A stretch of 64,000 bases of DNA from a virus (taxonomy: Duplodnaviria; Caudoviricetes): positions 128,001 to 192,000 of IMG/VR virus record IMGVR_UViG_3300031555_004710; one strand, given 5' to 3'. Positions within the stretch are counted from its first letter, which is position 1; the number at the start of each line of letters is the position of its first letter. Shown in pieces: positions 28,862-60,470 of the stretch. The notes under the pieces were generated by a model, which was not told the origin of the DNA, made no database searches, and worked only from the letters and a program-made list of their open reading frames with translations. The translations under genes were made by a program, and so were the position numbers.

Positions 28862-29359
28862 GTGGTAAAAAATATGGATTTCCCAATAATCAACAATGAA
28901 GAAAAAGATAGTGCATGTGTAATTCTTGTAAAGTACTCAGACCCAGAATTTCCAACACTACAGATTAATAAGAACGGTGATTGGATAGATATTAAATGTG
29001 TAAAAGATTATCATATTAAGAAAGGAACTTCTGAACTTATTGATTTAGGTGTTGCAATGAAGCTTCCTGAAGGATATGAAGCATGGTTAGTTCCTAGAAG
29101 TGGGACATTTAAAAAATATGGTTTAATACAAACTAATGGTATCGGAATTATTGATAACTCTTATAGTGGCAATGACGATATTTGGAGAATGCCAGTACAT
29201 GCACTAGATAGAGATGCCGATATTGCAAAAGGTGAAAGATTGTGTCAGTTTAGATTAGTACCGACAATGAAAACTGTAAATAGATTAGGTGTTTCTTTTA
29301 CAGAAGTTTCTAATTTAGATGAGACTAATCGTGGTGGATTTGGGTCTACCGGTAGATAA
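28862..29359 (+). CDS. dut: Trimeric dUTPase
   Basis: All five motifs: GDWID, VPRSG, GIIDNSYSG, GERLCQ, RGGFGSTG. Confidence 0.93.
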   Translation: MVKNMDFPIINNEEKDSACVILVKYSDPEFPTLQINKNGDWIDIKCVKDYHIKKGTSELIDLGVAMKLPEGYEAWLVPRSGTFKKYGLIQTNGIGIIDNSYSGNDDIWRMPVHALDRDADIAKGERLCQFRLVPTMKTVNRLGVSFTEVSNLDETNRGGFGSTGR

Positions 29360-29416
29360 TTAATATTATGATATTTGGAGTTTTGATTTTCAATCTCCAA
29401 ATATCATTTTTAATCA

Positions 29417-29432
29417 TATATTATTATTTTGA
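29417..29432 (+). promoter_or_regulatory. Putative early promoter TATATTAT-tattt-TG
   Basis: Recurring motif upstream of ligase. Confidence 0.6.
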
Positions 29433-29460
29433 TAATAAGATAGGAAGAAGGTAATTAATT

Positions 29461-32970: not shown

Positions 32971-34824
32971 TTGTATGAACCACTGATATTATTTAAAAAT
33001 ATAAAGGAGGAGCTTATTTTGCTTAATTATATATCATTATATCCAAATCCTTATGAGAAAGAATTTAATGATCAAATAATTTTGGGAACTCATGACAATT
33101 CTATTGCTGATTACGTTATTATGGAAATGATGGAGTTAGAAGCTATAGAAAATATCCATATTGAAAAAGTTGAAGTTGTAATGAATCAAGATGATATTGA
33201 TATAAATAATCATATGGTTAATATCAACTATAAAAAGAAGGATATGAATAGCATTGAAATTCCAAAATCTAAATATATAAATGATGGTAGATATGGAGAA
33301 GTAAGATTTACTATAAGAGTATCTACCAATTTGAATAGTAAGACTATATTAAAGAGAATACTTATTCCTATTGAACATGAAGGATTTTATTATAATAGCG
33401 GTAAACGAATGAAAGCAATCTGGCAGATTGTCGATGAAGCAACTTATTCTCAACGAGGAAAAATAACTTTAAAGAGCAGAATGCCAGTCATAATTTACCA
33501 GAATAAGAAAAGACAGATTACCGATGTATTAGGTAATATATATAATACTCCATCATATTCATATGCACTTAATGGTAAACAGCGTAAAGGACCTGTAAAA
33601 TCAGCTAAGAAGCCTAAAGCTAAATTTATAAATCCTATTATGATTTACTCAGCTAAAATGGGATTTCAGAATACTTTAGAATTCTTTGGTATGCAAGGAA
33701 TAGTATATATTGAACCACAGTACACTGAAGATGAACTTGAGGATCTATATATCTTCCCACTCGACGATGTATTTATAAAAGTTCATAAAGACTTATTTGA
33801 TAAATACGATTTGGTTAAATCATTCGTATGCATGACATATAATCTAAAATCACCTAAAGATTTTAGAATTGATATGAATTACTTAGAAGATAGAAAATAT
33901 TGGGTTTGTAGAATAGGAATGGTTGGTGCTGCAAGAAATAAGAATCTTGATTCATTCTTAGAAAAAGGTACTACTAACTTATTAATGATTGAAAGATTGA
34001 TCAATTCGGTAACTCAGCAATCGCTAAGACTTCCAAATTACTATAAACAAAATATATATTATTTACTGTATTGGCTGATTACCAATTTCGATGAACTTCG
34101 TAAATATAGTAATACTGATATGAGAAGTAAACGTATAAGACGAAATGAATATATTGTAAATTCTTCCCTTGGAAGAAAGTTATCAGAAAATGTGAATAAA
34201 TTAATAGAACGAAAGAGTCGTTCTAAAATGAATAATATGGATACTTTATTAGAATTATTTAACTTTGGTTCTGATATCGTAGTTGCTGGGATGAGAAATC
34301 TTAATGACTTAATTAAGACTGATGATATTGTAAATGATATGGATTTTATACAATCATTAACCTTCTCTATGAAAGGTCCGAATAGTATCGGGGAAGGAAA
34401 TAGCAAGATGATAGCTGTTAAGTATAGATATCTTGACCCTAGCATGGTTGGTGTATTAGACTTAAATGTATCATCTAATAGTGACATTGGTATGTCGGGG
34501 TCATTTGTACCTTTCGTTAATCTATATGATGGATATTTCTTCACTCCAGAAAGACAACCATGTGAAAAGAGATTTCATTTTGAAAATGAATTACAAGCTG
34601 CAGGTTTGAGAGTATATCCTATCCCAATTAATACTTTCGAAGACTACTTAAAAGTATTAGAAGATGGTGATAAGTTTAAAGAACTTCTTAAGCCTGAGAA
34701 GATTGAAATCATTGAAAAGACAACTGAGGAAATCCGAATAAAAAGAAAGAAAACTGAGGTTCCTATTACACCAGAAGAACCTGATATAAATATTGAGGAG
34801 GGTGATACAAATGAGAGTAATTAA
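32971..34824 (+). CDS. rpoB: Phage multisubunit RNA polymerase beta subunit, N-terminal half (probably non-virion RNAP)
   Basis: GFYYNSG...WQIVD; FSMKGPNSIG...RYLDPSMVGVLDL..SS.SDIGMSG resembles beta LSALGPGGL...RDVHPSHYGRICP. Likely TTG start at 33019 after AAGGAGG. Confidence 0.85.
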   Translation: MYEPLILFKNIKEELILLNYISLYPNPYEKEFNDQIILGTHDNSIADYVIMEMMELEAIENIHIEKVEVVMNQDDIDINNHMVNINYKKKDMNSIEIPKSKYINDGRYGEVRFTIRVSTNLNSKTILKRILIPIEHEGFYYNSGKRMKAIWQIVDEATYSQRGKITLKSRMPVIIYQNKKRQITDVLGNIYNTPSYSYALNGKQRKGPVKSAKKPKAKFINPIMIYSAKMGFQNTLEFFGMQGIVYIEPQYTEDELEDLYIFPLDDVFIKVHKDLFDKYDLVKSFVCMTYNLKSPKDFRIDMNYLEDRKYWVCRIGMVGAARNKNLDSFLEKGTTNLLMIERLINSVTQQSLRLPNYYKQNIYYLLYWLITNFDELRKYSNTDMRSKRIRRNEYIVNSSLGRKLSENVNKLIERKSRSKMNNMDTLLELFNFGSDIVVAGMRNLNDLIKTDDIVNDMDFIQSLTFSMKGPNSIGEGNSKMIAVKYRYLDPSMVGVLDLNVSSNSDIGMSGSFVPFVNLYDGYFFTPERQPCEKRFHFENELQAAGLRVYPIPINTFEDYLKVLEDGDKFKELLKPEKIEIIEKTTEEIRIKRKKTEVPITPEEPDINIEEGDTNESN

Positions 34825-35698
34825 CATTGAAGGAATTGATGCAGTTGGAAAAGAAACTGTATCTAAAGCTTTAGAGGAAAGATTAAGCGAGAAAGGATAT
34901 CGTGTAAAGCGTATATCCTTCCCAAATTATGATGGTTCTATTGGTAAATCTATAAAAGAAATTCTGATGGGAGCATGCGGTAGTGCACCTTCATTAGACC
35001 CAGATTTAATGGGACCATTTTATACAATGGATAGATTATCTTATTTTAAATGTAATATAGATGACTTGATTGATAATTACGACTATGTAATTATGGACAG
35101 AAGTTTCTATTCTAATTTAATGTATCAAGCTGCTAAATTCTATATATCTGGAAAGAATAAACCAATACAAATTTCAGACGATATTACAAAATATGGAATG
35201 AATTCCAGTACTTTAACAACAGTATTTGATTGGATTTCACGAAATTATCAATGGGAAATACAAGAGACTGGATTATATCGTTGCGATAATATGTTTACCT
35301 TTGTATTATCCATGGATGAAGAAAGTAGTAAAAAGCAATTAAGTAATAGAAAAGAAGTAGATACTAACGAAACAAGTCGTTCATATTTAGAAGAATGCAA
35401 AGAATTTATTACTAAAATACTATCAAATGATTATCGATATAATATTATGAAATTTATTGATGAATACGCATTTGCAGTTAGACTTTGTAATAGAAGCAGA
35501 TATATTCAGCAATATATGCATAATGCTGCTTTTTATTATCTATCAAATGTGGACTCTATTGAAGTTAAACATGTCGAAAATCCTAAGGATATTCCATCAG
35601 CTACAAATGAAGTTGTTAATAAAATACTTGACATGATGTACGACAATGATATGTTTGATGATGATTATGAAGGAGATGATGCTAATGGCGAAAATTGA
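34811..35698 (+). CDS. tmk: Thymidylate (dNMP) kinase
   Basis: IEGIDAVGKET P-loop, SFPNY, DR, MDRSFYSN. Confidence 0.85.
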   Translation: MRVINIEGIDAVGKETVSKALEERLSEKGYRVKRISFPNYDGSIGKSIKEILMGACGSAPSLDPDLMGPFYTMDRLSYFKCNIDDLIDNYDYVIMDRSFYSNLMYQAAKFYISGKNKPIQISDDITKYGMNSSTLTTVFDWISRNYQWEIQETGLYRCDNMFTFVLSMDEESSKKQLSNRKEVDTNETSRSYLEECKEFITKILSNDYRYNIMKFIDEYAFAVRLCNRSRYIQQYMHNAAFYYLSNVDSIEVKHVENPKDIPSATNEVVNKILDMMYDNDMFDDDYEGDDANGEN

Positions 35699-37694
35699 TT
35701 TTAATGGACATCCTAAGAAAAGTAAAGAAGAGCTAGATAAATTATATCCTCCTGATTTACTTATTATTATAGAAGAAGTTTTATCTTCCAAGAAATCATT
35801 TCAGTTAATATTTCAAGATTTAATTGATATTATGAAATATGGATTTGAAGATGAGAATGTTAGAAGACGTCCAATATACTATAAATTCAAAAAGCGTGAA
35901 AAGAAACAGCATGTTATGCAACTAAATCATATGATATCTAATCTTATATTTTGGAATCCATTAATTGAAGTTGATAAAGTAGAATTATTGGATGAGAGTT
36001 GGATATTTGATTTTAGTAAATTTAATACAAATACTCTTATGGATTATATCAACACACGTTTACTTCCGGTATTTGATACAGACTTTGCTTCACAAAATGT
36101 AATGGTCGATGAAATTTATCATAATATAATTTCGATATCTCATGCATTTTGTCTATTGATGGGTATGGGAATTTCGTTATATGATTTACATCAATTAGAA
36201 TTGAGAGACCCTGAAATATCTCATATAATGAGAGATTCTGTAGACCAGTCTCTTGAACCACATGAAGTAGAAGAGCAATTAAATGATAGAAATAAACGAC
36301 TAATACAGAAATTGATCGAAGACCCTATTGGAAATGACTATAAACCATTCTTTGCTAGTGGTACTGGATTAAAGGCTGCACAGTTTAGGGAATATATTGT
36401 AAGAATTGGATTTAAAGCTGATATCAACGGTAATACCGTTCCTATTCTTATAGATAATAACTTCCTATTACATGGATTATCAAAGCCTTCATTCTTATAT
36501 CTAAATGCGATATCTGGTAGAAAGAGTTTGATATTATCTAAACTTTCAATGGGAGCTCCTGGTAGTTTCTCTAAGAAGCTCACGATGAATTCAATATCTT
36601 CTACTTTAAGAGAAGACTATGAAACATGTGATAGTATTCTTACAATTGATTACTATATTAAGACTAATGAGTTCTTAAAGTTATTGAATGGAAGATATTA
36701 TTATGATGCCAGAGGTAATATGCAGCTTCTTGATTATGATAAAGATAAACATTTAATAGGTAAAGTAGTTAGATTTAAAAGTCCAGCTACATGTAATAGT
36801 AAGAACGGTGTATGTAAACATTGTTATGGACACATGTTTGATATTAATAAGAGCTTGGCTAGTGCTGGTGCATATGCTTCATTGAAGATAAGTGAACCTA
36901 TAGGTCAGGCAGTATTATCATCAAAACATAGTCAGACAACTTCATCAAACGAGCTGAAGTTCAGTGAAGGATATGATGAAGTATTTGAAACTACATCCTC
37001 AATGGTTACACTTAGAGAAGATTCTGATTTAGATGCAGATGTTTATATCAGATTGAATAATGTGTCAGTAGAAGAAATGGATGACTCTGAATTCTATTAT
37101 GTTGAATCATTTGATTTAGTTGAAGCTAATGGTAATTTGATAAGACATATTGAGGAAGAAAATAAGGCTAAGTTCTACTTAAATGATGGATTAATCTCAT
37201 TATATAAACAGAAGTTGAAGATGAAAAATAGTGAACCAATATTCTCATTAGATGAAATTGATGACGAAACTTTATTCACTATAGAAGTAAAGAATAAAGA
37301 GTTAACTGAACCTTTAAAGATATTTACTAAAGTTCTTAATACACATGAGCATATGGGTGCAACTAATTTGTCTGATTTATGTCAAATCTTTGCAGAAAAA
37401 TTAATTCTTATGGGAATTAAATATGAATTAGTTCATGCGGAAATGATAATAAGATCATTAATTAGAAAGAAGAGTAATATATTAGAGTTCCCTGATTTTG
37501 GAATGGGTGGAAATCTAAATGATTATCAGATTCTTAAATTGGATGAAGCTCAATTATATAATCCTAGTGCACTGGTTAGTATGCCTTATGGATATCTAAG
37601 AAGACAGTTATTATCAACTGAATTATATGAGAAAACTCAAACTGGAGCATTGGATGCGTTGTATGTTTCTGATTTGAGTAAGTATATTGATTAA
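35646..37694 (+). CDS. rpoC: Phage RNA polymerase beta' subunit, C-terminal half
   Basis: Bridge helix GRKSLILSKLSMGAPGSFSKKL, KSPATC...GVCKHCYG, trigger loop ISEPIGQAVLSSKH, HAEMII. Likely start 35685. Confidence 0.9.
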   Translation: MICLMMIMKEMMLMAKIDFNGHPKKSKEELDKLYPPDLLIIIEEVLSSKKSFQLIFQDLIDIMKYGFEDENVRRRPIYYKFKKREKKQHVMQLNHMISNLIFWNPLIEVDKVELLDESWIFDFSKFNTNTLMDYINTRLLPVFDTDFASQNVMVDEIYHNIISISHAFCLLMGMGISLYDLHQLELRDPEISHIMRDSVDQSLEPHEVEEQLNDRNKRLIQKLIEDPIGNDYKPFFASGTGLKAAQFREYIVRIGFKADINGNTVPILIDNNFLLHGLSKPSFLYLNAISGRKSLILSKLSMGAPGSFSKKLTMNSISSTLREDYETCDSILTIDYYIKTNEFLKLLNGRYYYDARGNMQLLDYDKDKHLIGKVVRFKSPATCNSKNGVCKHCYGHMFDINKSLASAGAYASLKISEPIGQAVLSSKHSQTTSSNELKFSEGYDEVFETTSSMVTLREDSDLDADVYIRLNNVSVEEMDDSEFYYVESFDLVEANGNLIRHIEEENKAKFYLNDGLISLYKQKLKMKNSEPIFSLDEIDDETLFTIEVKNKELTEPLKIFTKVLNTHEHMGATNLSDLCQIFAEKLILMGIKYELVHAEMIIRSLIRKKSNILEFPDFGMGGNLNDYQILKLDEAQLYNPSALVSMPYGYLRRQLLSTELYEKTQTGALDALYVSDLSKYID

Positions 37695-37738: not shown

Positions 37739-37750
37739 AACACCTCATTA
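37739..37750 (+). promoter_or_regulatory. Putative late promoter AACA-N6-TA
   Basis: aaca cctcat ta. Confidence 0.65.
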
Positions 37751-38507: not shown

Positions 38508-40823
38508 TTATTTGGCTATAGCTTCAAGTTTAGCTATTATTCCATCCATTCCTGCAAATGCTTGGTCTAATGTAGCTAAATCATTAGCTGCCTCAACGTA
38601 TAACGCATGTGTTTCTGCAGTTTGAGATAAATCTACTTCAGAAGGAATTGCAGAGCTAATCTGTACAATTTCTTCTTCTACTGTAGCATATTCTTCTTTA
38701 GTTACAGCATCTGTGATGCCATATCCAGCAAGTGTTGTTGGAGTATTTGTAACATTATTCCAATTCAATTCGGATACTGCAAATTCTTTAAATGCTTTAG
38801 ATACATTTAGTGACAATGTTGCAGTTGCAGTTATACCTCTGTAATTACCACTTATTAATCTATATCCAACTGCTACGTATTTTTTATTATCATAGCATAT
38901 TGATGACCAGAATGTGTTAACATCTGTAATTGAATCCTCATTCCATGTTTTACCATCTATTGAGTATAAAAATTTATTTGAAGAGCTTGATATTATTACA
39001 CATAATCCATTTGCATAACATCCTGTTCTCCAGTAGTTTTCTTCTATATTAGATGCTTGGATGATATCCCATTCAATACCATCTGTTGAACTTGCAAAAG
39101 TATTTCCAAAACTAGGTATTAGAATAAATTTATCATTTGCAAAAAATACACTACCCCATTCAGTAATACTATCAATAGTAAAAGGATTTGCCCAAGTTTT
39201 AGCATCAGTAGAATATGTTATTGTATATGCTTCATTTGTCATGTCATAACCAACAGCTACAAACTTACCATTTCCATAACATATAGACAGTAACTCATCT
39301 TCGGTATCTGTATTAGTATTAGCCTCGATAAATTTCCAATTTACCCCATCTGATGAAGTTCCAATAAGTGATTTATAATTATCTACATGTCTTCCAGCTA
39401 CAACATATTCACCATTGCCATAACATATTGATGTTAATACATGCGAATATCCAGTAACAGTCCAATCGATACCATTTTTAGAGAATGCGATAGTCCCATT
39501 TCCTGATACAGCAACGAATTTACCATTACCATAGCATATAGAATTCCAATATTTAATACCACTAGAACCAACTTTTCGTTCTGTCCAATTAATACCATCT
39601 TCAGAATATGCAAATATATCACTAGCATGTGCAATAGCTACAAATTTACCATTACCATAACATACGGATTTCCATTCTCTAACAGTGGTTATCTCAGGAT
39701 CTTTAACAGACCAATCGTTAATAATTCCCTCTGAACCAAGATATTCATCATTAGTTACAAAATACCATTCCACGCCATTGTCAGTTTCAAGACAAATTGT
39801 ATCTCCATTATGAACAGGATTCTTTTTCAATGAATATAACTCTTCTTTACTATTGAGTACATATACTCTTTCTTTCACATCATAAGGAAGAGCATCTAAA
39901 GGAATATCTCCATTAACGTTTGATATATCAACAATTACATTGTTATCTAAATTATGAATATGGTCATTATCAGCTTTAGAATCCCACTCAAGCTGTTTTA
40001 CTTTAGTTGGATGAATTAATGAATCATTTGAATGTGATTCAAGTGAAGTTTTTAACTCTGAAGTTGTATTTGATAGATTTTCTATTTTACCACTTTCTGA
40101 TAAGACTATTTGATCTATTTTATCTTCCAATGAAGATTGCATAATATTTACAGAATTCTGCAAATCTTCTTTAGATGCACTATTATTCCAGTTATTCTTT
40201 TCATCTGGAGTGACATGAATAGTATTATCGGCAATATGAACATCTATAGCATTTATAGAACCTGAAGATATTGATGCAACAGTATCTTCAATATATTTGA
40301 AGATATCTGTTTTTTTTCCTTGTGGGTCGTAGATGTCAGTTATCATTGACCCTTCTGGAATAATACTTTCCCAGTTACTATTTATATAAATTTTTAATGT
40401 TGGAAAATTAGGATTAGATGTATCCATCCAAACAGTCTTACCATCTATAGGTGATATAGGTGCAGATGGACCGGGATTAATGGAACCTTCCGATTGGTCA
40501 ATACTCCAATTTCCATATTCAGACTCACTATTTTCACTTACTCTAACATAAGATTTATTTAGTGCAGTAATAAACTGATATAAATTATCACCCATAAGTA
40601 CAATAGATATATTTATAGGAGATATATTTACTTCTCCAAAATCAGGACCATTAATAAAATGTGAGGTTGTATAGTTTCCAGGATTTTTAAGAAGATTTAA
40701 ATTTGTAGGATTCGATACAGAAGATTCTATTCTAATCCATCCATTATTTACAACTCTTATATTTCGACCTTTTTCAAGAGCCAAATCAATTTGTTCACCG
40801 GTATATTTAGTAGGCCAACCCAT
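38508..40823 (-). CDS. Tail fiber-like protein with an inserted seven-repeat beta-propeller
   Basis: YTGEQID N-terminus, HI.D..IH.T..EK..WN repeats, PTTLAGYGITDA fiber motif, 7x W.SICYGNGKFVA...S.DG..W. Confidence 0.7.
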   Translation of the reverse strand: MGWPTKYTGEQIDLALEKGRNIRVVNNGWIRIESSVSNPTNLNLLKNPGNYTTSHFINGPDFGEVNISPINISIVLMGDNLYQFITALNKSYVRVSENSESEYGNWSIDQSEGSINPGPSAPISPIDGKTVWMDTSNPNFPTLKIYINSNWESIIPEGSMITDIYDPQGKKTDIFKYIEDTVASISSGSINAIDVHIADNTIHVTPDEKNNWNNSASKEDLQNSVNIMQSSLEDKIDQIVLSESGKIENLSNTTSELKTSLESHSNDSLIHPTKVKQLEWDSKADNDHIHNLDNNVIVDISNVNGDIPLDALPYDVKERVYVLNSKEELYSLKKNPVHNGDTICLETDNGVEWYFVTNDEYLGSEGIINDWSVKDPEITTVREWKSVCYGNGKFVAIAHASDIFAYSEDGINWTERKVGSSGIKYWNSICYGNGKFVAVSGNGTIAFSKNGIDWTVTGYSHVLTSICYGNGEYVVAGRHVDNYKSLIGTSSDGVNWKFIEANTNTDTEDELLSICYGNGKFVAVGYDMTNEAYTITYSTDAKTWANPFTIDSITEWGSVFFANDKFILIPSFGNTFASSTDGIEWDIIQASNIEENYWRTGCYANGLCVIISSSSNKFLYSIDGKTWNEDSITDVNTFWSSICYDNKKYVAVGYRLISGNYRGITATATLSLNVSKAFKEFAVSELNWNNVTNTPTTLAGYGITDAVTKEEYATVEEEIVQISSAIPSEVDLSQTAETHALYVEAANDLATLDQAFAGMDGIIAKLEAIAK

Positions 40824-40873: not shown

Positions 40874-40885
40874 TACGAATTTGTT
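40874..40885 (-). promoter_or_regulatory. Putative late promoter AACA-N6-TA
   Basis: Reverse strand aaca aattcg ta. Confidence 0.7.
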
Positions 40886-40957: not shown

Positions 40958-40969
40958 AACAATTCCTTA
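40958..40969 (+). promoter_or_regulatory. Putative late promoter AACA-N6-TA (divergent pair)
   Basis: aaca attcct ta. Confidence 0.7.
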
Positions 40970-41014: not shown

Positions 41015-44000
41015 ATGGCTACATATCTTGAAAAAATCGCAGCTGCTCAAAAGGGAATTGATTCCACTTATGGGCTTCTTAATATTTATAAAAATTCAAG
41101 ATCTAATAATGGATGGATTGGTACTAACCCATCTGATATAAATTTAAGTAAGTTTAATACTTACTTTAGCGAAAATAATATCGTTAAATTAAATGATTCG
41201 ATAGATGCAACCCTATTTGATATCCCTATGAGTACTATGGGTTATGATAAGTACGGAAACTTTGGTGCAGGTATTCCTAGCGATATTGGATTTACTAGAA
41301 ATGTAGAGCAAAATGAGTATGGTAGTTATATTCCACATCCTCCATTATATAAAATAATAAATGGGGATACTATTGAAGCTTATGCAAGTAATAATGCGGA
41401 TATAAATATAGGTGGTAAAGTCAAATACCGCATTGTAGATAATGGAATTGAAGTATTTCCAAATGGTTCAAGTGAATCATTTATTTCTGCACCAGATAGT
41501 GAATATTTTGATCCAGAATATATTTTCCCAATAGTTCCTGTAGATGATAGTAACCATCTACATATGCTTTATGCTTTCGTATCAATAAATTATCAAAACG
41601 GTGGAATAATGTTATTTGTTACACCAAATTTTATAACTTGGAATACTCATTGTATTCTATCTCCAGATGCTGATTGGCATGAAACATGGCATAGGATATT
41701 TGATCATAATGAGGATAATATGTCACTTATTCGTAGTTCAGAAAATATTTCTATTGTAGAAAATATAATATCTAAATATTTTAGAGTGCTTCCTAATAAT
41801 AATTATCTTATTATGAGACCAGAGGATATTTCTAATGCAGCTGGTAATAATTTCCCAATGGTTAAAATGTATTCTTTATGGAATAAAGATCCATTATTAA
41901 TAATTATGAATCCATATAATTTTGATTATGATAATATCGAAGGATATTTAAATGTTATATACAATGGATTCTCATCATTTATGACAGAAAATGGAGAAAT
42001 TGTATTATATTATAATAATTCTGGATATACTCCATTAGTTCTGTATAATGGTAGAACAATGGGCACATTTACAGGAGAAGTTTCTGATAATTATAGACAT
42101 GAAATCATTGAATCTCCAAAAGTTGCAAAGATATATGATATGCAGATTGATAAAACTGCGCCATATACAAAAACCGTTGATAATATGGCAATGGATTGTG
42201 CTGTAAGTATACTGGAAAGTAAAAATAAAAAATTAACAAATGATGATATTCCCGCAGCATCAGTACAACTTGCACTGGGCGATATTGGTAGACCTTATAT
42301 CGATAACATGTTAGATGAAATATCTTTACATGTAGATAAATCAATAGATATGATGAATAATATCGATGTTGATTTTAGCGATTATATTTATGCTAAAAAT
42401 AATAACGGTCAAGATTATTTAGAAAAAGATTCTGATTTGCAGAATAATGATATCCAATTGATGGATTGTAATACGAAAAATGGAGAAATTATAGAAACTC
42501 TTGTTACTAATATATGCTATGGTAATGGTAAATATATTATTTTTAATGATGATGGAACTATCATATATTCAAATGATGGTATTGTTTGGGAGTATAATTA
42601 TTCTCCTTATTATTATTCATCATTTTATAATTTTGGATGTTATGGGGATAATAAATTTATTACTATCGGAAATACCGAATCAGGCTCATTTACTGACGGG
42701 GAATTAACTTTTAACTATTCTACTGATGGTATTGAGTGGACAAATATATCTGTATCGAATATTGATACTAGTAAGCATTATATTTGCTCATTGTGCTATG
42801 GTAATGGTAAATTTGTAGCAATTAAATCTTATTCATCTATAATATATTCAAATGATGGTTTTGTATGGAATGAAGTTGATATTAGCAATTTTAATAAAAA
42901 CTGGTATGATGTATGCTATGGTGACGGTAAGTTTGTAGCAATCGCTGCTGATACTGCAGAAATAATTACTTTCATATATTCTATTGATGGTATTAATTGG
43001 ACAGAATGTATAGCTAGCGGCATGGATTTAGCTTGGTATTCAATATGTTACGGTAATGGTAAATTTGTTGCAGTTGGTAGCAATGTACCATATGCGGATA
43101 CTCCAGTAGTAGCACATTCAACTAACGGTGTTGATTGGACTGTGGAATATATTGATCCATATAAATACTATGATTTTTCAGATGGTGGATACTCATATTA
43201 TGATCGTATACGTTATGGTAATGGAAAATACATTGTTATTGATGGTAGCTGTAATGTTATTTATTCTACTAATGCTATTGACTGGATATATATAGATAAT
43301 ATAGAAGATAATTATAATGAAATACCCAATATTGGTTATGGAAATGGTAAATTTATACTAACCACATATAGTACTATTAAATATTTAGATTCCATTGACT
43401 TTTCAATTCATTCTAATATCTCAAATAATAATAAATTAACTATTCTTTCTGACCCTTCATTATATAATAGTAATGTAAGATATCGTTCTTCGATAATTGG
43501 AAATACTTTAGAAACCGGGATTAATATAAATAATATTGATACATGGGTTGAAAGTAATATAAGTGATACAACTAGAATGTGGACCTCAGTATGTTATGGT
43601 GATGGTAAATTTATAGCATTTGGAATTGACAACGTATCTGCTTATTCTATAGATGGTATTAATTGGACTGAAGTTACAGTAAGTGATATTAGTAGAGATT
43701 GGGAATCGGTATGTTATGGCGATGGTAAATTTGTAGCTATTTCTTGCGATGACAATATATTTGCTTATTCTACAGATGGTATTAATTGGACAGAAGGTAC
43801 TATAAGTGATAATTATAGATACTGGGAATCGGTATGTTATGGTAATGGTAAATTTGTAGCGGTTACAGCTTATGATGGTGACAACGTATCTGCTTACTCT
43901 ACAGATGGTATTAATTGGATAGAATGTGCTATAAGTGATAATTATAGATCTTGGGCTTCTGTATGTTATGGTGATGGTAAATTCGTAGCAGTAGGATATG

Positions 44001-46327: not shown

Positions 46328-46339
46328 TAGCGAAATGTT
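46328..46339 (-). promoter_or_regulatory. Putative late promoter AACA-N6-TA
   Basis: Reverse strand aaca tttcgc ta. Confidence 0.65.
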
Positions 46340-48410: not shown

Positions 48411-48422
48411 AACAAATTCTTA
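48411..48422 (+). promoter_or_regulatory. Putative late promoter AACA-N6-TA
   Basis: aaca aattct ta. Confidence 0.7.
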
Positions 48423-48448: not shown

Positions 48449-51400
48449 ATGAAAGGATGTGTTTTTATCATGGCAATGCCAATTACTAAAGCACGTAAAG
48501 AACGTATTGATGTTTTAAATCAAGATATTGATACTAAACTTTCTGAAATTAAATCTACATATGAAAATAGTGGTTTTGGTTTTGATGCAGTTGCTGCAAA
48601 TGGATTTAGTAGATCTAATTTAGTACAAGATTTAAATAATAACGTACATGGTATAGCAGTTCCTGAAGAATCCGAAATTATATCTTTAGGAAATGTAAAC
48701 GGATATGAAACTGTAAATGCATTTCCACTTAAAGGTAATTGTAAAAATGGAGTTAAATATGCTGACCCAAATAACCCTGCTGAAGTTTATGTAGAAAATA
48801 ACAGTAATACATTAGTAACTGATAGAGCTGATGAAAATTTAGATATCGATCGTTGGACTTCAAGAACTATATTTAAATTCAAATCTGAGAACTATGGATA
48901 TGATAGATGTGTTTATGTCATTCCAATTGCTGATTTAGCAAATGGATTTATTATTAATAGCGAAAAAGATACTCCGCATGGAAATACATTAAAGAATTAT
49001 CCATATCCAGAAGAAATTATTATGACTTCTCAAAAAACTGAGAAGAATTTTATTCATTTTATAAATGTCCAATATACAGATAGTCACTATGGACATTTTA
49101 ATGGAAGAAATTACAATTTAATGATTGTAAAAAATAGAACTAGATATGGAGTATTAGATGAATCTGGAAATAGTTTTAAAGAATATACAAGTGTATATGC
49201 AAATGATATAGAAACTGAATTAGCATATGTAGATAACGGATATTTATATTTACCAGTTCCAAGTCCAGCATTTGGTGAAGAGATGTTAGATACTCTATGG
49301 GATTGTAGAGTTATATGGAGAAGAGATATTCCAGATAGAAATATTTCTATTAACTTAGAGATCAATTCGGATTCCAGAGATATTTATGCTAATTGGAAGG
49401 ATGTTGTAGTTGAGTCTGAAGGAAGATTTTGGGACTCTATATGCTATGGTGATGGAAAATTCGTAGCTATTGGAAGTACTACTAATCTTACTGATGATAC
49501 GATATGTGCTTATTCTACAGATTGTATAAATTGGACAGTGACCACAGTGAGTAGTAATAAAAGAATATCGAGTGACATATGCTATGGTGGTGGAAAATTC
49601 GTAGCTATTGGTTCAGGTACGACATTTGCTTATTCTACAGATTGTATAAATTGGACAGAAATTACTGTAAGTAATACATTTAACCTTTGGTCTTCTATAT
49701 GCTATGGTGGTGGAAAATTCGTAGCTATTTGTTCAGGTACGACATTTGCTTATTCTACAAATGGTATAAAATGGACAGAAATTACTGTATGTAATACAGA
49801 GGTATTAGTATGGAAAACCATATGTTATGGTGATGGAAAATTCGTAGCTCTTTCATCTAATCCAAATCTATTTGTTTATTCTACGAATGGTATAAATTGG
49901 ACGGAAGGTACTATAGGTAATATACGTAAATATTGGTCTTCCATATGTTATGGTGATGGAAAATTCGTAGCTATATCGAGTGGCAATGATTCTAATTCTA
50001 GCATAATATTTGCTTATTCTACTGACGGTATTAATTGGACAGAATATACAATAGAATCTGCAGTTAGATTCTGGGACTCTATATGCTATGGTGATGGAAA
50101 ATTCGTAGCTATCGCAAATTATTCCCCAAATAAACAATTTATATTTGCTTATTCGACTGACGGTATTAATTGGACAGAAGGTTCAATGAGTATATATACT
50201 ACTGGTTGGAAGTCTATATGTTATGGTGATGGGAAATTTGTATCTGTGGGAGCATACCATCCATTCACCTATATTAATAGTGATGAAATTAATAGATTTG
50301 ATGATGTTAATAGTATGCAAATCATCGATGATAGAATTCATTTAGGTTTTGGAAATAAAGATTATATTGCATATAATAGAAGTTCCAATCTCAATTTAAC
50401 TGGAGAATATTACGACATTGTAAATTCAATTATTGATGGTAGGTGTGTTATCACTGATGATGGGACTATAAAGATTGCACCTCTATTTAATGATAGTTAT
50501 AATTTGATTCAGCCACTTCAAGATGATAGATTTGAATACTATTGGGGTGTAGGTTGCCCTAATCAAATATTTAAAATTTCCGATAATAATTATCTCGGTT
50601 TTTATTATAAATATTGTGATCATATAGGTGATGATTACATTGATGAAGTAACTCAATTATATTGGGGTATTTTTGATTCTAGCATGAGAACTATAAATCC
50701 CGTGCCATCCGATGATAGTCATATTCCTGAACCATATCCATGCCAATATTATTCATCAGAATTTATGAATACTGGAAAAATAATAAAAGTATTTAGAGAT
50801 AATATCAATGAAGTTACACAGAAATCTTCCTATTTAGTATTTGCTCAAAGAGGAATATATAGATTTAATTTCTGTATGACGGGGATAGATGCGATAGAAC
50901 TTACATCAATAGAAACTATACTTACACTCGAATCTAAATATAACCGTTATACATTGTATGATATTGAACGAATCTCAGATAGTGAATTTTATTTTATTTA
51001 TGATATCGAATGTGTTAAGGTAGATATTATTGATAAAACGATGAGTCATATTTGTTCATTGGCAAATATACTATTTGGTAGAACTTGTATTGCAGATCTT
51101 GGGCTTGGTGAATCAAATATCCAAAGATATTTATATGATAGTAATCAATTGATTATACCAAATAATAGCTACTACGATACTGCATTAATTGAATCTGATA
51201 GCAAAATTAAATATAAATATGGTATATTTAAAAATGAGAAATATGAACCAATATTACACAAATTAGTAGAGAAATTTAGTTTCGATAAAGAACTTATGCA
51301 GCCTCCGTCGTATTGGATAAGTAGAGAATATACTATAAGCACATCATATAAATATAATGATATCTCTTATAGTGATGACAGGTTTATTGCTAAGAATCCT

Positions 51401-52174
51401 AATCGTAATACATTTGCTTATTCTACCGATGGTATTAATTGGATGGAAAATGAAGTTATTATGAGTGACAATCTCAATACAACCTATTCTAGCATATGTT
51501 ATGGTAATGGTAAGTATGTAGCAAGTAGATATACCGATAATATAGTATACTCTACTGATGGCATTAATTGGATAGAAGTATCATTAGATAATTTCGGTGG
51601 AAGTTGGAATGACGTATGTTATGGAGATGGTAAATTTGTAGTAGTAGGGGATGCTGCTGGTGCAATAATTGCTTACTCTACCGATGGTATTAATTGGACA
51701 CATGCTAGCACTGGTGCTGCTAATCTTAGCTATATAAAATACTGTGATGGTAAATTTATGTCAATCGATGATACCAATAATCTCGTATATTCTGATGATG
51801 GTATTAATTGGAATTGGCATGAAATGGATATATCTATACCAGTTATCTATGATATGTGCTATGGAGATGGTAAATTTGTTGCAATTGGATGGGAAGATGA
51901 CCAGAGTACCGAACCGTGGGGAACAACATCTTTTCTAACATATTCGACTGATGGTAGTACTTGGACAACTGTCTATATAGATATAGGTATTGAATGGGAT
52001 TCTATATGCTATGGGGATGGTAAATTTGTAGTAGATAAGGGTTATTATTCTATCGATGGTATTAATTGGATGCAGACTGGTACTACTTCACTAAATAGTA
52101 TCTGTTACGGCAATGATAAATTTGTAGGAGTTAATTATAATTCATCTAAATCCACATTACTAATAGATTTTTAA
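48449..52174 (+). CDS. Large virion/adsorption-type protein with two seven-repeat beta-propellers
   Basis: Two separated blocks of 7 SICYGDGKFVA...YSTDGINW repeats; likely start 48470. Confidence 0.7.
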   Translation: MKGCVFIMAMPITKARKERIDVLNQDIDTKLSEIKSTYENSGFGFDAVAANGFSRSNLVQDLNNNVHGIAVPEESEIISLGNVNGYETVNAFPLKGNCKNGVKYADPNNPAEVYVENNSNTLVTDRADENLDIDRWTSRTIFKFKSENYGYDRCVYVIPIADLANGFIINSEKDTPHGNTLKNYPYPEEIIMTSQKTEKNFIHFINVQYTDSHYGHFNGRNYNLMIVKNRTRYGVLDESGNSFKEYTSVYANDIETELAYVDNGYLYLPVPSPAFGEEMLDTLWDCRVIWRRDIPDRNISINLEINSDSRDIYANWKDVVVESEGRFWDSICYGDGKFVAIGSTTNLTDDTICAYSTDCINWTVTTVSSNKRISSDICYGGGKFVAIGSGTTFAYSTDCINWTEITVSNTFNLWSSICYGGGKFVAICSGTTFAYSTNGIKWTEITVCNTEVLVWKTICYGDGKFVALSSNPNLFVYSTNGINWTEGTIGNIRKYWSSICYGDGKFVAISSGNDSNSSIIFAYSTDGINWTEYTIESAVRFWDSICYGDGKFVAIANYSPNKQFIFAYSTDGINWTEGSMSIYTTGWKSICYGDGKFVSVGAYHPFTYINSDEINRFDDVNSMQIIDDRIHLGFGNKDYIAYNRSSNLNLTGEYYDIVNSIIDGRCVITDDGTIKIAPLFNDSYNLIQPLQDDRFEYYWGVGCPNQIFKISDNNYLGFYYKYCDHIGDDYIDEVTQLYWGIFDSSMRTINPVPSDDSHIPEPYPCQYYSSEFMNTGKIIKVFRDNINEVTQKSSYLVFAQRGIYRFNFCMTGIDAIELTSIETILTLESKYNRYTLYDIERISDSEFYFIYDIECVKVDIIDKTMSHICSLANILFGRTCIADLGLGESNIQRYLYDSNQLIIPNNSYYDTALIESDSKIKYKYGIFKNEKYEPILHKLVEKFSFDKELMQPPSYWISREYTISTSYKYNDISYSDDRFIAKNPNRNTFAYSTDGINWMENEVIMSDNLNTTYSSICYGNGKYVASRYTDNIVYSTDGINWIEVSLDNFGGSWNDVCYGDGKFVVVGDAAGAIIAYSTDGINWTHASTGAANLSYIKYCDGKFMSIDDTNNLVYSDDGINWNWHEMDISIPVIYDMCYGDGKFVAIGWEDDQSTEPWGTTSFLTYSTDGSTWTTVYIDIGIEWDSICYGDGKFVVDKGYYSIDGINWMQTGTTSLNSICYGNDKFVGVNYNSSKSTLLIDF
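49425..50250 (+). repeat. Coding tandem repeat, about 120-140 bp x7
   Basis: atatg(c/t)tatggtg(a/g)tggaaaattcgtagct recurs; 49577-49669 and 49697-49789 differ at only 4 positions. Confidence 0.9.
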
Positions 52175-52936: not shown

Positions 52937-53812
52937 ATGCAAGGGAACATAAAAGGAAAATTTAAAGTAATAACACTTTGCGGTTCAAGTAAATTCAAGA
53001 AAGAATTTATAGAAGTTGCAGAAAAACTTTCATTGGAAGGAAATATTGTAATTTCATTAGGATTATTTGGTCATGCTGATAATAAGTTTGCTACAGTGAT
53101 AACTGATGATGTTAAAGCAATGCTTGACGCAGCGCATAAACAAAAAATTGAAATGTCTGATGCAATTTATGTAATAAATCCAGGAGGATATATAGGAGAC
53201 TCAACTAGAAGTGAAATAGGTTATGCAATTAATCTTGGAAAAGAAGTTCATTTCTTAGAACCAATAAAAAGTATTCAAAAAATCGGTGATATATATAAAG
53301 TTATTACTGATAATGATACTCTTGATTCACCTGGAGATCCTATGAATAATGATATTATTACGTATAAAATAGATGATTTTAAGTATTTTGATGATTTATG
53401 TTCATTCTATAGAAATACACCAAAAGAAGAAGTTATAGATAAAAATCTTTTATTTAGAATAACTGCATCTGGTGGATATGATTATCGTAATAAATATATC
53501 GAAGAAGACGATCTTATAAAACCAATTATTGTAGATGGTTTATTGACTTGGATTAAAATACCATTATCATTTGATGGATTATCATTGTCGACTAGTTTCA
53601 AAGACCTTTGTGAAACATTTAATCCACATATACACATGGCTAAATTTGGTAAAGTTTATCAAATTATAAAGGGTGGAGGAAAAGATTATTATGGTGAGCC
53701 TATAATGGATGGTGATTATTTAACATATCATGATACTAAAAAAGGAGTTTATGCATGGAGTAAACTCCACAGTAAATTATTGGAGGTAATACAAAATGAG
53801 CAAATCAAATAA
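52937..53812 (+). CDS. NDT/DUF4406-like Rossmannoid domain fused to a repeated C-terminal module
   Basis: VITLCGSSKFK...H.QKI.MSDAIYVINPGGYIGDSTRSEI.YA. Confidence 0.65.
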   Translation: MQGNIKGKFKVITLCGSSKFKKEFIEVAEKLSLEGNIVISLGLFGHADNKFATVITDDVKAMLDAAHKQKIEMSDAIYVINPGGYIGDSTRSEIGYAINLGKEVHFLEPIKSIQKIGDIYKVITDNDTLDSPGDPMNNDIITYKIDDFKYFDDLCSFYRNTPKEEVIDKNLLFRITASGGYDYRNKYIEEDDLIKPIIVDGLLTWIKIPLSFDGLSLSTSFKDLCETFNPHIHMAKFGKVYQIIKGGGKDYYGEPIMDGDYLTYHDTKKGVYAWSKLHSKLLEVIQNEQIK

Positions 53813-55086
53813 ATGTAATATAGAATACGTTAGAGTAGAAAAGATACCACTTGACTTAGAGTGTTGGCATGATATTGCTACTGGCAATGGTATTAGACTT
53901 ACTTCAGTTGAATCTTTTGATAAAAAGAATCAGAAGATATATAGAGGGCTTCAGTCAGAATTCTTTGGTTCAGACTTTTCATCAGACTGGGCTTTTAAAG
54001 AAAGATATAGTTGTAAATGTGGAAAATATATGGCTAAAGCATATTCTGGAATGGTATGTGATTTCTGTGGCACTAAAGTAGAATATCACGATATTGACCT
54101 TAAGAAAACTGGATGGGTAATTCTTGATAAGTTCGAAGTTCTTTCTCCTATATATTCGGCAAAACTTACAGAAGCGTTAGGTAAGGCTGATGGAGAATCT
54201 GTACTTAGAATGATACTTAATCGTAGATATCATGAAGAAGGGGTAATTGAGTACTCTGAAAAAGAATTAACAAACATAAAGAAGCATCCATTTTCTCAAA
54301 GAGGTATGCAGTGGCTTAGAGAGAATATAATGGAAGTATTAGACTTCTACGAAAAGAGAAAACCTGGTAAACAAAAACTCTTTGAAGAACTTAGAAATGA
54401 ACAGGCTAATATGTGGACACATTCTATTCCTATTTACAGTTCTCTTTTAAGAACAGAACTTCCTGGAGAAAAAGGTTCTAAAAACTTTAAGCTTAAAGTA
54501 AACACTCATTTCAAATCAATCATTCGATTAGTAAATGCAATTAATGATATAGACCCAGATGATATGGATTATATCACATTAAATTCTATAGATATATATC
54601 TTGCAGGAATTCAAAAAGAAATAGACCAAGTATTTGATGTTACTTTTAAAGACCTTACAGATAAAACTGGTATTATAACAAGTAAGATACTCGGTGGAAG
54701 ATATAACTTTAGTTCAAGAGATATTATAGTTCCTGATAGTGGAACTTTAAGGTCTGATGAAGTTATAATAGGATATATACCATTTCTTGAATTATATAGA
54801 TATGAAATTCAGAATGAATATAGAAAAATACATGGCTGTACTCCAGCACAAGCAAATACTGCTTGGAAAAGAGCGACTAATCATTTCGATCCTAAGATTT
54901 ATGCTATAATAGAGCATATGGTTAATGACCCTGAATATAGAAGATATTTAGGTGTATTGATTAACAGAAATCCTAGTATAAACTATGGATCATTTGATTA
55001 TGTTAAAATCGTTGGTGTTAAGAAAGATATCTCGGATAAAACTCTTACAATACCAACACACATAATAGTTCCAATGAATGCCGACT
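53796..55086 (+). CDS. rpoC: Phage RNA polymerase beta' subunit N-terminal half, exon 1 (join 53796..55086,55414..55589; 488 aa)
   Basis: Zn finger YSCKCG...CDFCGT, ILGGRYNFSSR.IIVP, INRNPS, ending PMNAD+T. Confidence 0.92.
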
Positions 55087-55413
55087 TAACAAATCCGTTG
55101 AGGTCGGGTACAGTAGTAATATTGTACATGTATCTAGGTGAACGCTTAACCAGCGGTGTCTATTCTATAGGCTAACGGTAGAAGTTAGATAAGCATTATA
55201 GATGTCGAATACGCTTCGTAAGAAAAGCTACGGTCCATTTATAATATGGATAGCAGCCAATACCGTGCCAAGCTTCTATATACATATAGTTGAAGGTGTA
55301 GAGACTAATTATTAGGATATATGATGGAAAGCATATATTCGAAGCGCCTAGCTCCTATGTAAATAGGATGAAGATATAGTCCACATATTATTGAAAAATA
55401 GTAATTATTATTG
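55087..55413 (+). mobile_element. Group I self-splicing intron (IA-like, no homing endonuclease), 327 nt
   Basis: 5' exon ends in U paired to IGS (ccgacu/ggucgg); terminal G at 55413; P7 elements GUAGAGACUA and GAAGAUAUAGUCC; P3 cuaggug/cgccuag; GNRA loops; removal restores NADFDGD. Confidence 0.95.
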
Positions 55414-58082: not shown

Positions 58083-58094
58083 AACATTTCATTA
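58083..58094 (+). promoter_or_regulatory. Putative late promoter AACA-N6-TA
   Basis: aaca tttcat ta. Confidence 0.65.
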
Positions 58095-58114
58095 ACTTTT
58101 TAAGATAAAACGAG

Positions 58115-58873
58115 GTGATATTTATTATGACAATTGCTGAATATTTACAAAATCCTTATGGAAAAGGCTCGGCATTTTCGTCGAGCTCAAAACAGAAAGA
58201 TGATTTGGATAAGCAATTTAAACAAATCTCTGAAAAGATAATTTCAAAAATTTATCGTTATCGTGATTTTGTTATATATCATGTAATCGTTCCTAGTACC
58301 AAAAAAGACTTTGTTAATTATGATGTAGTAATTGAAGTAGAAACAAAGAAACTTCATGAAGGAGCAGCAAATTTGGAAGGACTTGAATTTAAAGTATTCT
58401 CAAATTGCCCTTCATTCATATTTACATATGCACATGTTTTTAGGGGTAGTGGAATGTTATGTGACTGGCTTCTTCCTAAATATAATAAAGAAGTTAGGAC
58501 AAAAGCTCCAGTTAAACGAAATCAATACGGTATCGTAGGCTTAGAAAGAAGTGTGTATTTAGCACTTAAGCATTTACATGCTAGTGGAAAAACCCATTTT
58601 GGAGTTTATCAAACTGCTGGAAAGAAAGTTCATGGTAGAAATGAGATTATTAATGCCGTTAGAACTCAGCAGCAAATTATGGATAGGGTTAAGGAAAAAA
58701 TTCCTGCACATAAAGACCCTTCAGCATTTAGTCCAAAAACAATTGCTACAAATCCCCATGCCAATAAAGATAGGACAACTCGAACTACAGTTTTTACAAA
58801 ATCTGTAAAAAATATAAAGAGTGGAAAAATGACAAAAAGTACAAAAACATCAAAAACGACGAAAAAAATATAA
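58115..58873 (+). CDS. Hypothetical protein with K/T-rich basic tail
   Basis: 252-aa ORF; YDVVIEV...KVFSNCPSF.FTYA. Confidence 0.7.
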   Translation: MIFIMTIAEYLQNPYGKGSAFSSSSKQKDDLDKQFKQISEKIISKIYRYRDFVIYHVIVPSTKKDFVNYDVVIEVETKKLHEGAANLEGLEFKVFSNCPSFIFTYAHVFRGSGMLCDWLLPKYNKEVRTKAPVKRNQYGIVGLERSVYLALKHLHASGKTHFGVYQTAGKKVHGRNEIINAVRTQQQIMDRVKEKIPAHKDPSAFSPKTIATNPHANKDRTTRTTVFTKSVKNIKSGKMTKSTKTSKTTKKI

Positions 58874-58925
58874 ATCAATATATTTTTTTTATGTATATTA
58901 AAAAGATTATGAGGAGGCTAAAACA

Positions 58926-60470
58926 ATGGGCAATTTAAAACCACTAGCATTTCAGGAGAATCCTCCACTTTATGAGTGGGTACCTAATCCTGGAGAAATA
59001 TATTATATATATGATGGAGAAAACGTAAAAGCAGACTATGATGGACGTGTTGGAAAGATTGAAGAAATTTCAACCCTACCAATATTTTACATAAAAAAGA
59101 ATCATTATAAAACTAGAATGGATGAAATTACTAGAGTATTGAACTATTTTACTAGATTTTATGATTTAGATAGAGAATCATTTTTCGCTATGATGGTTGC
59201 AAAATATTACTGCGATACACATCTTGATGTATTGCAGAAAGATTTTATAAACTATCTAATGGAAAATGTAGTTACCTCTAGCTTTGTATCTAAATGTAAA
59301 ATGATGTCATGCGATTTATATAAATTAAATATAAATGCAGACTCTTCAGGAAAATTCAATAACACTCCAAAAATCACAAATGCTCAGGCATTTCAAATTG
59401 TAGCAGTTTCATTCTGTTTTAAAATATTGACTCCATTAATGTTACATTTCTCAAACGTGAATACTAATTTTGATCCAGCTGTGAAGACAGAATATTTGAA
59501 ATGGTTCAATAAGTTATTCAATAAAGTAATCAAGAAATTTGAAGAAGGGGATACACCTTTCTATACGTCTCTTTGCAAATTCGTTGTATTTAGGGGAGAG
59601 AAAATCTCTAGAAATAACTCAACTGCATTTTACCAAAAGAAAATGCTTAGAGGAGATACTCTCGAATTATATAATGAAAATTTAATAAAAGAGGTAGTTT
59701 GTGTAAAGACTCTTTATAAGTTAGATTACAGACATTCATGTGTAGCATTTATTGATGGAGTTATTCATAACTATAATATGAACTACTTAAAAGAAAACTT
59801 TAGTAGTAAACCATATGAGATAGATTCTGAAGAAACTTCAAAAGATTCAGATGAATCATTATCTCATGCAGAAGCTATGGAAATGGCAATGTATAAAAGA
59901 GATGAATCTGCCGCAATGGTTGCAGATATCAATGGAGAATATGTAATGAATCAAATTCGAAAATGGTACAAAGCATTTGATATCAGTAATGAAGAATTTG
60001 AGTTCTATTACAATAACTTCTATCCTAACGAAGTTAACCAATCATTATTCAATGATTTTTATGCTGGGAAATTTAAAGACCCATATGCTGTAAATAATCT
60101 TAATAGAAAAGATACAGTATATCTTTTAATTTGCATGAAGAAAGTATTCCAGACATATAAAATGTATCATCTTGCACAGATTTGTACTGCTCAGGTATTT
60201 CGTAAGTACAAAGAAAATGTAATTAAAAATGGCAAATATATGGAAAGAATAACTTCCTCTAATGTATATAAGGAAATAGTTTCTAGAAAATATTCTAATA
60301 TCGTTGAGTTAGGTATGAAAGAGAATCCTATACTTAAAACTCTTGAGACGATTATCAATAGTGTATTTACTTTAGTAGACTATGAGCCTGAAATAAATGG
60401 ATATAAACTTGAGCATTTAGATAGAGATGCTATTGCAGATGAATATTTACTTTTCCTAAGTATTATATAA
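58926..60470 (+). CDS. Non-virion RNAP promoter-specificity (sigma-like) subunit, AR9 gp226-like
   Basis: Colinear similarity, judged from memory of AR9 gp226: Y.L.IN..S.GK, KILTPLM.F, F.KVIK.F..G, KL...S...F.D.VI, DE.LS..E.ME, terminal D.IA.E.L..L.I. Confidence 0.7.
   Translation: MGNLKPLAFQENPPLYEWVPNPGEIYYIYDGENVKADYDGRVGKIEEISTLPIFYIKKNHYKTRMDEITRVLNYFTRFYDLDRESFFAMMVAKYYCDTHLDVLQKDFINYLMENVVTSSFVSKCKMMSCDLYKLNINADSSGKFNNTPKITNAQAFQIVAVSFCFKILTPLMLHFSNVNTNFDPAVKTEYLKWFNKLFNKVIKKFEEGDTPFYTSLCKFVVFRGEKISRNNSTAFYQKKMLRGDTLELYNENLIKEVVCVKTLYKLDYRHSCVAFIDGVIHNYNMNYLKENFSSKPYEIDSEETSKDSDESLSHAEAMEMAMYKRDESAAMVADINGEYVMNQIRKWYKAFDISNEEFEFYYNNFYPNEVNQSLFNDFYAGKFKDPYAVNNLNRKDTVYLLICMKKVFQTYKMYHLAQICTAQVFRKYKENVIKNGKYMERITSSNVYKEIVSRKYSNIVELGMKENPILKTLETIINSVFTLVDYEPEINGYKLEHLDRDAIADEYLLFLSII

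Follow-up and report, generated by a model that had tools for sequence, protein, structure and literature searches.

AR9-type promoters and a gp226-type promoter-specificity subunit in an uncultured jumbo phage that appears to have thymine DNA

To our knowledge, the non-virion RNA polymerase (nvRNAP) of phage AR9 is the only polymerase known to read its promoter through deoxyuridines (dU) of the template strand. The uracil requirement has been proposed as a means of telling phage DNA from host DNA. Can a promoter system of this type also work on thymine DNA? The question was raised by a stretch of 64,000 nucleotides (the window), which corresponds to bases 128001–192000 of a 236,671-bp phage record in IMG/VR. 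The record is 94% complete, has a G+C content of about 29% and is the genome of an uncultured jumbo phage (237 kb; G000). The window contains AACA-N6-TA promoter words, a gp226-like gene at 58926–60470 and a dUTPase gene at 28862–29359. Judged from its genes, it is rather probable that the phage has thymine DNA and that its AR9-type polymerase reads AACA-N6-TAA promoters without uracil.

The gene at 58926–60470 (plus strand) was assigned as a sigma-like promoter-specificity subunit, the ortholog of AR9 gp226, by BLASTP, HHalign and fold comparison, and 82 uncultured homologs were found. The product was 24% identical to AR9 gp226 (L001:19415–20809, minus strand) with 463 residues collinear (E 5e-13, BLASTP). 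A profile of 46 uncultured homologs was compared with seven AR9-clade proteins by HHalign, which gave a probability of 99.6% and an E of 7e-24 over 450 columns. The AlphaFold2 model had a mean predicted local distance difference test score of 81, and its best PDB matches in Foldseek were 7s01_A and 7um0_A (E 1.6e-15, probability 1.0). Chain A of 7S01/7UM0 (463 residues, AR9 holoenzyme) was taken as gp226 by chain length. The third-best structural match was phiKZ gp68 (E 2.6e-4). The gene had no match by tblastn against phages or by plain phmmer against PDB, and AR9 gp226 searched against the genome of the window phage had none either. Since the plain searches were empty, the similarity is remote, and it was visible only by pairwise BLASTP, profile–profile comparison and fold comparison. 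Orthology with AR9 gp226 can be regarded as established from the alignments and the modelled fold. The gp226-like gene named in the initial annotation was thus found to be a full-length homolog by sequence, profile and predicted fold. The gp226 gene of Listeria phage LPJP1 is annotated as two coding sequences.

The other polymerase subunits were also present. The nvRNAP beta N-terminal subunit (betaN), a homolog of AR9 gp105, was at 32971–34824 (plus strand; BLASTP E 7e-37, tblastn and multiple sequence alignment). The beta-prime C-terminal subunit was at 35646–37694 (plus strand; phrog_3015, 7.8e-45; tblastn identity of about 28% to AR9, PBS1 and S6), and the beta-prime N-terminal subunit, a homolog of AR9 gp270, at 53796–55175 (plus strand; tblastn with AR9 g270 exon 1, E 1e-24, genome 182303–183085). 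The genome had homologs of all four nvRNAP core subunits, with betaC outside the window (genome 49724–51778, minus strand), and the phage therefore encodes homologs of all five AR9 nvRNAP subunits. A homolog of AR9 gp227, the syntenic partner of gp226, lay at 58115–58873 (plus strand; tblastn E 7e-16; phrog_20045), directly upstream of the gp226-like gene as in AR9. By analogy with gp226-type subunits, the product of 58926–60470 is predicted to bind the core and to direct promoter-specific initiation.

The closest relatives by the RNA polymerase (RNAP) beta-prime gene were the AR9/PBS1, Staphylococcus S6-type and phiR1-37 jumbo phages, with an identity of only about 28% (tblastn). Uracil DNA is classically known from AR9/PBS1, S6 and phiR1-37 (PMC7598289). 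In a FastTree phylogeny of 96 gp226 homologs, the AR9 clade and the family of the window phage were separated with full support. Forms with SDx[VI]IW were at the base of the window family, and the NNxTAF form of the window was deep within it; the tree was rooted at the midpoint only, and the direction of change and the ancestry are not established by it. On this midpoint-rooted tree, the window phage belongs to a large clade that appears to be sister to the uracil-DNA phages.

The whole genome had 135 raw matches to AACA-N6-TA, and the window 41; the raw pattern is common because the DNA is AT-rich, and placement is what counts. Of the genome matches, 51 were correctly oriented within 120 nt upstream of open reading frames (ORFs), against an expected 7.3; these upstream zones (120 nt before 213 crude ORFs) were 5.4% of the sequence. 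AACA ranked first among all 4-mers in an unbiased scan for 4-mer-N6-TA upstream of genes. The N6 spacing gave 51 sites, and the other spacings from N3 to N10 gave 5–27. Although the search pattern imposed neither, 45 of 50 sites had A at position +2, and the 5' flank was W-rich; the extended consensus was WWWAACA-N6-TAAW. A position weight matrix allowing mismatches converged on 43 sites; in these, the four positions of AACA were essentially invariant. About 43–51 genes carry this sequence, the AR9 late-promoter consensus, upstream, and the putative start sites were 20–92 nt (median 41) before the start codons. The AR9 control and four relatives (G003, G006, G007 and G010) showed the same enrichment. 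The sites are probably AR9-type late promoters with transcription predicted to start at the A of TA, and the promoter consensus proposed in the initial annotation is borne out by its enrichment upstream of genes and its specificity for N6. In four out of five genomes in which they were counted, AACA was less frequent than the other three permutations of its letters, only mildly so; this was given no weight.

Whether these promoters contain uracil or thymine was judged from the nucleotide genes. The trimeric dUTPase at 28862–29359 (plus strand; Pfam dUTPase, 48 bits; phmmer E 5e-40 to Bacillus subtilis YncF/SPbeta YosS) had all five motifs intact in the alignment to YncF/YosS, among them the Asp of motif III and the RGxxGFGSTG of motif V, as had been claimed for it. 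Its likely start is ATG 28875, which has a Shine-Dalgarno (SD) sequence, not GTG 28862. A dTMP-kinase domain was found in the N-terminal half of the protein encoded at 34793–35698 (plus strand; Pfam Thymidylate_kin, 2.4e-18; likely start ATG 34811), in which a P-loop and a DR motif can be recognised. Outside the window, a probable ThyX gene was found at genome positions 230621–231499 (L006:1438–2316), with 100 bits to Pfam Thy1 (cut-off 24.8). Its signature R-K-R-xx-S-x4-S-x-R had canonical spacing, with Lys for the His of RHR. dUTPase, ThyX and the dTMP-kinase domain would together form a complete route from dUTP to dTDP.

Among G000, AR9, S6, phiR1-37 and LPJP1, each of these three was found only in G000. 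A PF00383 deaminase was found in the other four. In PBS1 and phiR1-37 a deaminase of this type is the dCTP deaminase (Dcd) that supplies dUTP, and its partners there are a dUTPase inhibitor and hydrolases of dTMP or dTTP (PMC12697855). G000 had no match to PF00383, the zinc-deaminase type of Dcd, and none by tblastn with AR9 g221. No Ugi was matched in G000 by tblastn, Ugi being small and fast-evolving, and no ThyA was found there. PF06941 (the PBS1 Dtm family) and PF03167 (uracil-DNA glycosylase) had no match in any of the five genomes, AR9 included, and are hence uninformative. The genome-wide check of thymidylate synthases against a glycosylase inhibitor or dCTP deaminase thus yielded ThyX on one side and no Dcd-type deaminase or Ugi match on the other. 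The R-K-R form of ThyX occurred in G000 and G003, and G007 had the R-H-R of canonical ThyX; G009 and G010 had only a weak ThyX-like ORF without the signature.

The comparison was extended to six complete AR9-clade genomes (AR9, S6, phiR1-37, LPJP1, G018 and G019) and four complete genomes of the window clade (G000, G003, G007 and G008); G018, G019 and relatives were from IMG/VR. In the AR9 clade, thymidylate synthase was found in 0/6, dUTPase in 0/6 and the deaminase in 6/6; G018 and G019 had no ThyA, ThyX or dUTPase and had the deaminase. In the window clade, thymidylate synthase was found in 4/4 (ThyX in G000, G003 and G007; ThyA in G008) and also in several fragments of relatives. Because dUTPase, ThyX and the dTMP-kinase domain are present, the Dcd-type deaminase is absent and the clades split cleanly, the DNA of the window phage likely contains thymine, which is the most economical reading. 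The thymine-DNA lineage of the initial annotation is supported by the same genes and by the lack of a Dcd-type or Ugi match. LPJP1 (L004/L008), G018 (L099) and G019 (L101) share the uracil-type signature Y-x-D-x-V-I/M-W-x-Y/F; having the deaminase and no dUTPase or thymidylate synthase, they are predicted from sequence to be further dU-DNA phages.

If the DNA contains thymine, the polymerase would therefore have T, not U, to start with at template positions -11 and -10. In AR9, the -10 uracil sits between gp226 I207 and betaN R363, is hydrogen-bonded to betaN K375 and to the V206/I207 backbone, and has its C5 atom against V206 (PMC9209446). Y210 is the stacking partner of -9G, which also bonds to the backbone at F261 and Y263; what excludes thymine at -11 is the DNA backbone and no side chain (PMC9209446). 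On the non-template strand, gp226 Y246 stacks on an A and is essential on dsDNA templates (PMC9209446).

The AR9 segment SDVVIW was placed in the same register with NNSTAF of the window protein by BLASTP, by MAFFT with 90 bridging sequences and by HHalign, which reproduced the alignment that the initial annotation had given. The model helix 232–242 (STAFYQKKMLR) coincided with the AR9 2.1bis helix 205–214. The codons of this predicted helix are at 59619–59651 (plus strand), with that of T233, aligned with V206, at 59622–59624. A one-residue shift pairing Y236 with AR9 Y210 was rejected, since the three alignment methods and the predicted helix boundaries agreed on the unshifted register. The equivalents of gp226 D204, V206, I207, W208, Y210 and F261 were N231, T233, A234, F235, Q237 and Glu, and those of betaN Y362–R363 and K375 were N409–K410 and T425. 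The -10 uracil pocket is thus altered on both walls, gp226 and betaN, in the window phage. Loss of gp226 homology or retention of the Val pocket had been named as evidence against a thymine-reading subunit; the homology was confirmed, and the uracil-discriminating residues (gp226 V206, I207 and Y210; betaN R363 and K375) were not kept. The non-template-strand contacts S245/Y246 were retained as A274/F275.

Column 206 was invariant Val in the AR9 clade (7/7, plus five more), and in the window family it contained T (24), G (18), K (11), V (10), I (7), P (5) and L (5). Column 210 was always aromatic in the AR9 clade and was Q or K in the window family, with the exception of one Met. Column 261 was Glu in every window-family member with a residue there. 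On the other wall, betaN Y362–R363 was invariant in five AR9-clade phages, and N-K and T425 were invariant in the four window-family members examined (G003 was left out). Column 246 was aromatic (F/Y) and column 245 small (S/A/G) in all 90 family members, and the segment around S245/Y246 was the best-conserved stretch between the clades.

Several observations weigh against polymerase recognition of thymine promoters as proposed here. The key residue Thr233 is the same size as Val206, so a simple steric argument fails there. The expectation of smaller residues was right for I207 (Ala) and W208 (Phe) and wrong for V206, and the pocket is not simply widened at that position as had been suggested. 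No side-chain change obviously relieves the backbone exclusion of thymine at -11. The residue equivalences were taken from alignments of about 24% identity and a predicted model, not from superposition onto 7S01. G006 and G011 keep T-D-A-V-I-W and yet carry ThyA (best match B. subtilis ThyA). Regarding the DNA itself, sequencing reads U as T, so the base is deduced from the genes. The 0/6 versus 4/4 split follows the clades and amounts to about one phylogenetic event, not ten independent ones. ThyX of G000, with K for H in RHR, scored 79.9 against the NCBIfam equivalog cut-off of 87.9. The protein at 34793–35698 matched only half of the dTMP-kinase profile, and its NCBIfam dTMP kinase match was below the cut-off; the dTMP kinase of the initial annotation was matched in the N-terminal half of the protein.

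Since G006 and G011 keep V-I-W together with ThyA, residue 206 is not the sole switch. Val at column 206 was accordingly rejected as a marker of the absence of thymidylate synthase. From the alignments, the changes at Y210, F261 and the betaN wall, which are clade-wide, appear to be better candidates for the switch than residue 206. G006 and G011 have both ThyA and a PF00383 deaminase, and the betaN wall of G006 is N-K. The AR9-like T/S-D-A-V-I-W segment was kept in L025 (G006), L030 (G011) and L023 (G004), and these three phages are the natural variants best suited to showing by which wall uracil specificity is set.

Within the proposal of thymine DNA read without uracil, the possibility that template-strand reading was kept, with the pocket rebuilt to tolerate the methyl group, is given slightly less than an even chance. 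The 5-methyl group would be tolerated with Ala at the Ile position and with a flexible Lys where AR9 has the stacking Arg. The -11/-9 stack would be rearranged because Y210 and F261 are gone, and residue 206 itself would be unconstrained in the window clade.

An unlikely, though serious, alternative is that the DNA contains thymine and AACA is read mainly on the non-template strand, with a template pocket that is no longer base-specific. U or T would then be irrelevant, because that strand has no T/U in the motif. The equivalents of Y246/S245, whose roles are known from AR9 (PMC9209446), are kept in 90/90 family members as F/Y and S/A/G, in the best-conserved segment between the clades, and the residues of the template pocket are either exchanged or unconstrained, as this explanation would have it. 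However, the 2.1bis helix is still predicted, with flanks conserved within the family, and the invariance of all four AACA positions can be explained by reading of either strand.

It is considered highly improbable that the phage has uracil DNA after all and reads uracil as in AR9, with dUTPase, ThyX and kinase inactive or moonlighting in regulation or early host manipulation. The promoter consensus and polymerase are common with known U-DNA phages, Thr233 matches Val206 in size, and ThyX is a motif variant with a score under its equivalog cut-off, all of which would suit uracil DNA. However, every catalytic motif of the dUTPase is present, no gene of the dCTP-deaminase type was found to supply dUTP, and no dUTPase or thymidylate synthase occurs in the six complete AR9-clade genomes. 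PBS2 inhibits the host dUTPase (PMC12697855), and other residues stand at the uracil-contacting positions of both pocket walls. It is likewise very improbable that the DNA has, in place of plain T or U, a modified pyrimidine, thymine-derived or other, that is synthesised from the dUMP/dTMP pool and to which the pocket was rebuilt: jumbo phages often modify their DNA, and the large C-terminal half of the kinase ORF and many neighbouring ORFs have no family match, but no ThyA-type hydroxymethylase was found in G000, the ThyX product is dTMP and not 5-hydroxymethyl-dUMP, and no modification enzyme was identified in the part of the genome scanned.

Reading of thymine promoters without uracil thus remains the favoured explanation, and it bears on how the uracil code arose. 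One tentative scenario, rated well below an even chance, is that the AACA-N6-TA promoter and the gp226-type subunit predate uracil DNA. The thymine clade would read the promoter without uracil, perhaps chiefly through the non-template strand, and the AR9 template pocket (Val206, Tyr210 and betaN Arg363) would be a later addition that co-evolved with dU-DNA and tells phage from host DNA. The window clade makes the order of events, promoter code or uracil DNA first, testable.

The system was compared with those already described. It has in common with the AR9/PBS1 nvRNAP holoenzyme (PDB 7S01, 7UM0 and 7UM1; PMC9209446, PMC5449584) the five-subunit set, a gp226 ortholog that matches in length class and fold, the gp227–gp226 synteny, a short predicted helix at the 2.1bis position, the late promoter AACA-N6-TA with the same spacing and a similar early-promoter word, ATATATTAT. 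Unlike AR9, the window phage carries genes for dUTPase, ThyX and a dTMP-kinase domain, with no Dcd or Ugi match, and gp226 V206, I207, W208, Y210 and F261 and betaN Y362, R363 and K375 are all replaced. The sequence identity between the two is only about 24–28%, and the promoter of the window phage has the extra conserved A at +2 and the W-rich flank. PBS1 and phiR1-37 share the broad phage lineage of the window phage, along with the polymerase and promoters. The Dcd plus Dtm/Dtt module for dU-DNA synthesis, known from PBS1, phiR1-37 and DSS3_VP1 (PMC12697855), is absent in the window phage, which has the opposing dUTPase and thymidylate synthase instead.

The engineered AR9 gp226 V206G accepts T at -10 and still needs U at -11 (PMC9209446). 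As in this mutant, the Val that excludes the thymine methyl group is lost in the window phage. The mutation relaxes one position, whereas a thymine-DNA phage would need both -10 and -11, and the natural proteins differ from the mutant at many other contact residues. The idea of a natural V206G counterpart holds for 18 other family members with Gly at this column and not for the window phage itself, which has Thr. The Gly members (e.g., S-D-I-G-I-C) include L027 from the complete genome G008, which has ThyA, and P0044, P0050, P0055, P0057, P0065–P0068, P0073 and P0077–P0080. The uracil requirement can be probed with natural variants that have Gly, Thr, Lys or Val at position 206, or betaN Lys for the stacking Arg.

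The phiKZ nvRNAP with gp68 (PDB 8QUE, 9RJS) is from a thymine-DNA jumbo phage and also has a sigma-like fifth subunit. It differs in its promoter consensus, in the need for gp68 in core assembly and in sequence, with about 10% identity. Phages of the phiKZ type build a chimallin nucleus. A tblastn search of the whole G000 genome with phiKZ chimallin (gp54) gave nothing meaningful, which is a weak test from which absence is not concluded. If chimallin is truly absent, the window phage would be a jumbo phage that encodes RNAP, has thymine DNA and builds no nucleus shell. Reviews class RNAP-encoding jumbo phages into those with uracil DNA and no nucleus (AR9 type) and those with thymine DNA and a nucleus (phiKZ type). 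The window phage, together with its many uncultured relatives, seems to represent a third kind that combines thymine DNA with transcription of the AR9 type. No published description of thymine-type relatives of the AR9 system was found in the literature.

The individual promoter sites were located as follows. In the window, 13 AACA-N6-TA sites were correctly oriented and at most 130 nt from a called ORF, with one more at 61873. Seven sites were in or adjoining 28862–60470, mostly ahead of large, apparently structural genes. Putative late promoters were found at 37739–37750 (plus strand; AACA-N6-TAA, 40 nt before ORF 37790), 40874–40885 (minus strand; before ORF 38508–40823, minus), 40958–40969 (plus strand; before ORF 41015–44446), 46328–46339 (minus strand; before ORF 45100–46281, minus), 48411–48422 (plus strand; before ORF 48449–52174) and 60524–60535 (plus strand; before ORF 60575–61825). 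A late-type AACA-N6-TAA promoter was also at 58083–58094 (plus strand), ahead of the pair of gp227-like and gp226-like genes, whereas AR9 g226 carries an annotated early promoter. Transcription of the sigma-like subunit may thus be due, in part at least, to its own polymerase. Outside this range, a late promoter was predicted at 27220–27231 (plus strand; before ORF 27260–28153), and further AACA-N6-TA sites were at 10699–10710, 13749–13760 and 14855–14866 (minus strand) and at 19101–19112, 23602–23613 and 61873–61884 (plus strand).

The early-promoter word occurred just upstream of genes at window positions 29416, 52900, 15593, 1382 and 52190 (plus strand), for example ahead of the ligase at 29461 and of ORF 52937. 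It is similar to the annotated AR9 early promoter AAATATATATTAT, and TATATTAT was among the most enriched upstream 8-mers. From these words, the virion-polymerase early promoter seems to be conserved too.

Some neighbouring loci were also observed. The kinase ORF overlaps both adjoining polymerase-subunit genes, and its C-terminal part of about 180 residues (35150–35698) had no family match and an acidic D/E-rich tail. The region 28154–28861 (about 700 nt), between ORF 27260–28153 and the dUTPase gene, had three small ORFs preceded by SD sequences, one with a hydrophobic product, and a hairpin-plus-T-run terminator was near 28786–28810. The ORF at 44543–45064, between two late structural-type genes, encoded a WDGH domain (Pfam PF25311, E 5e-37).

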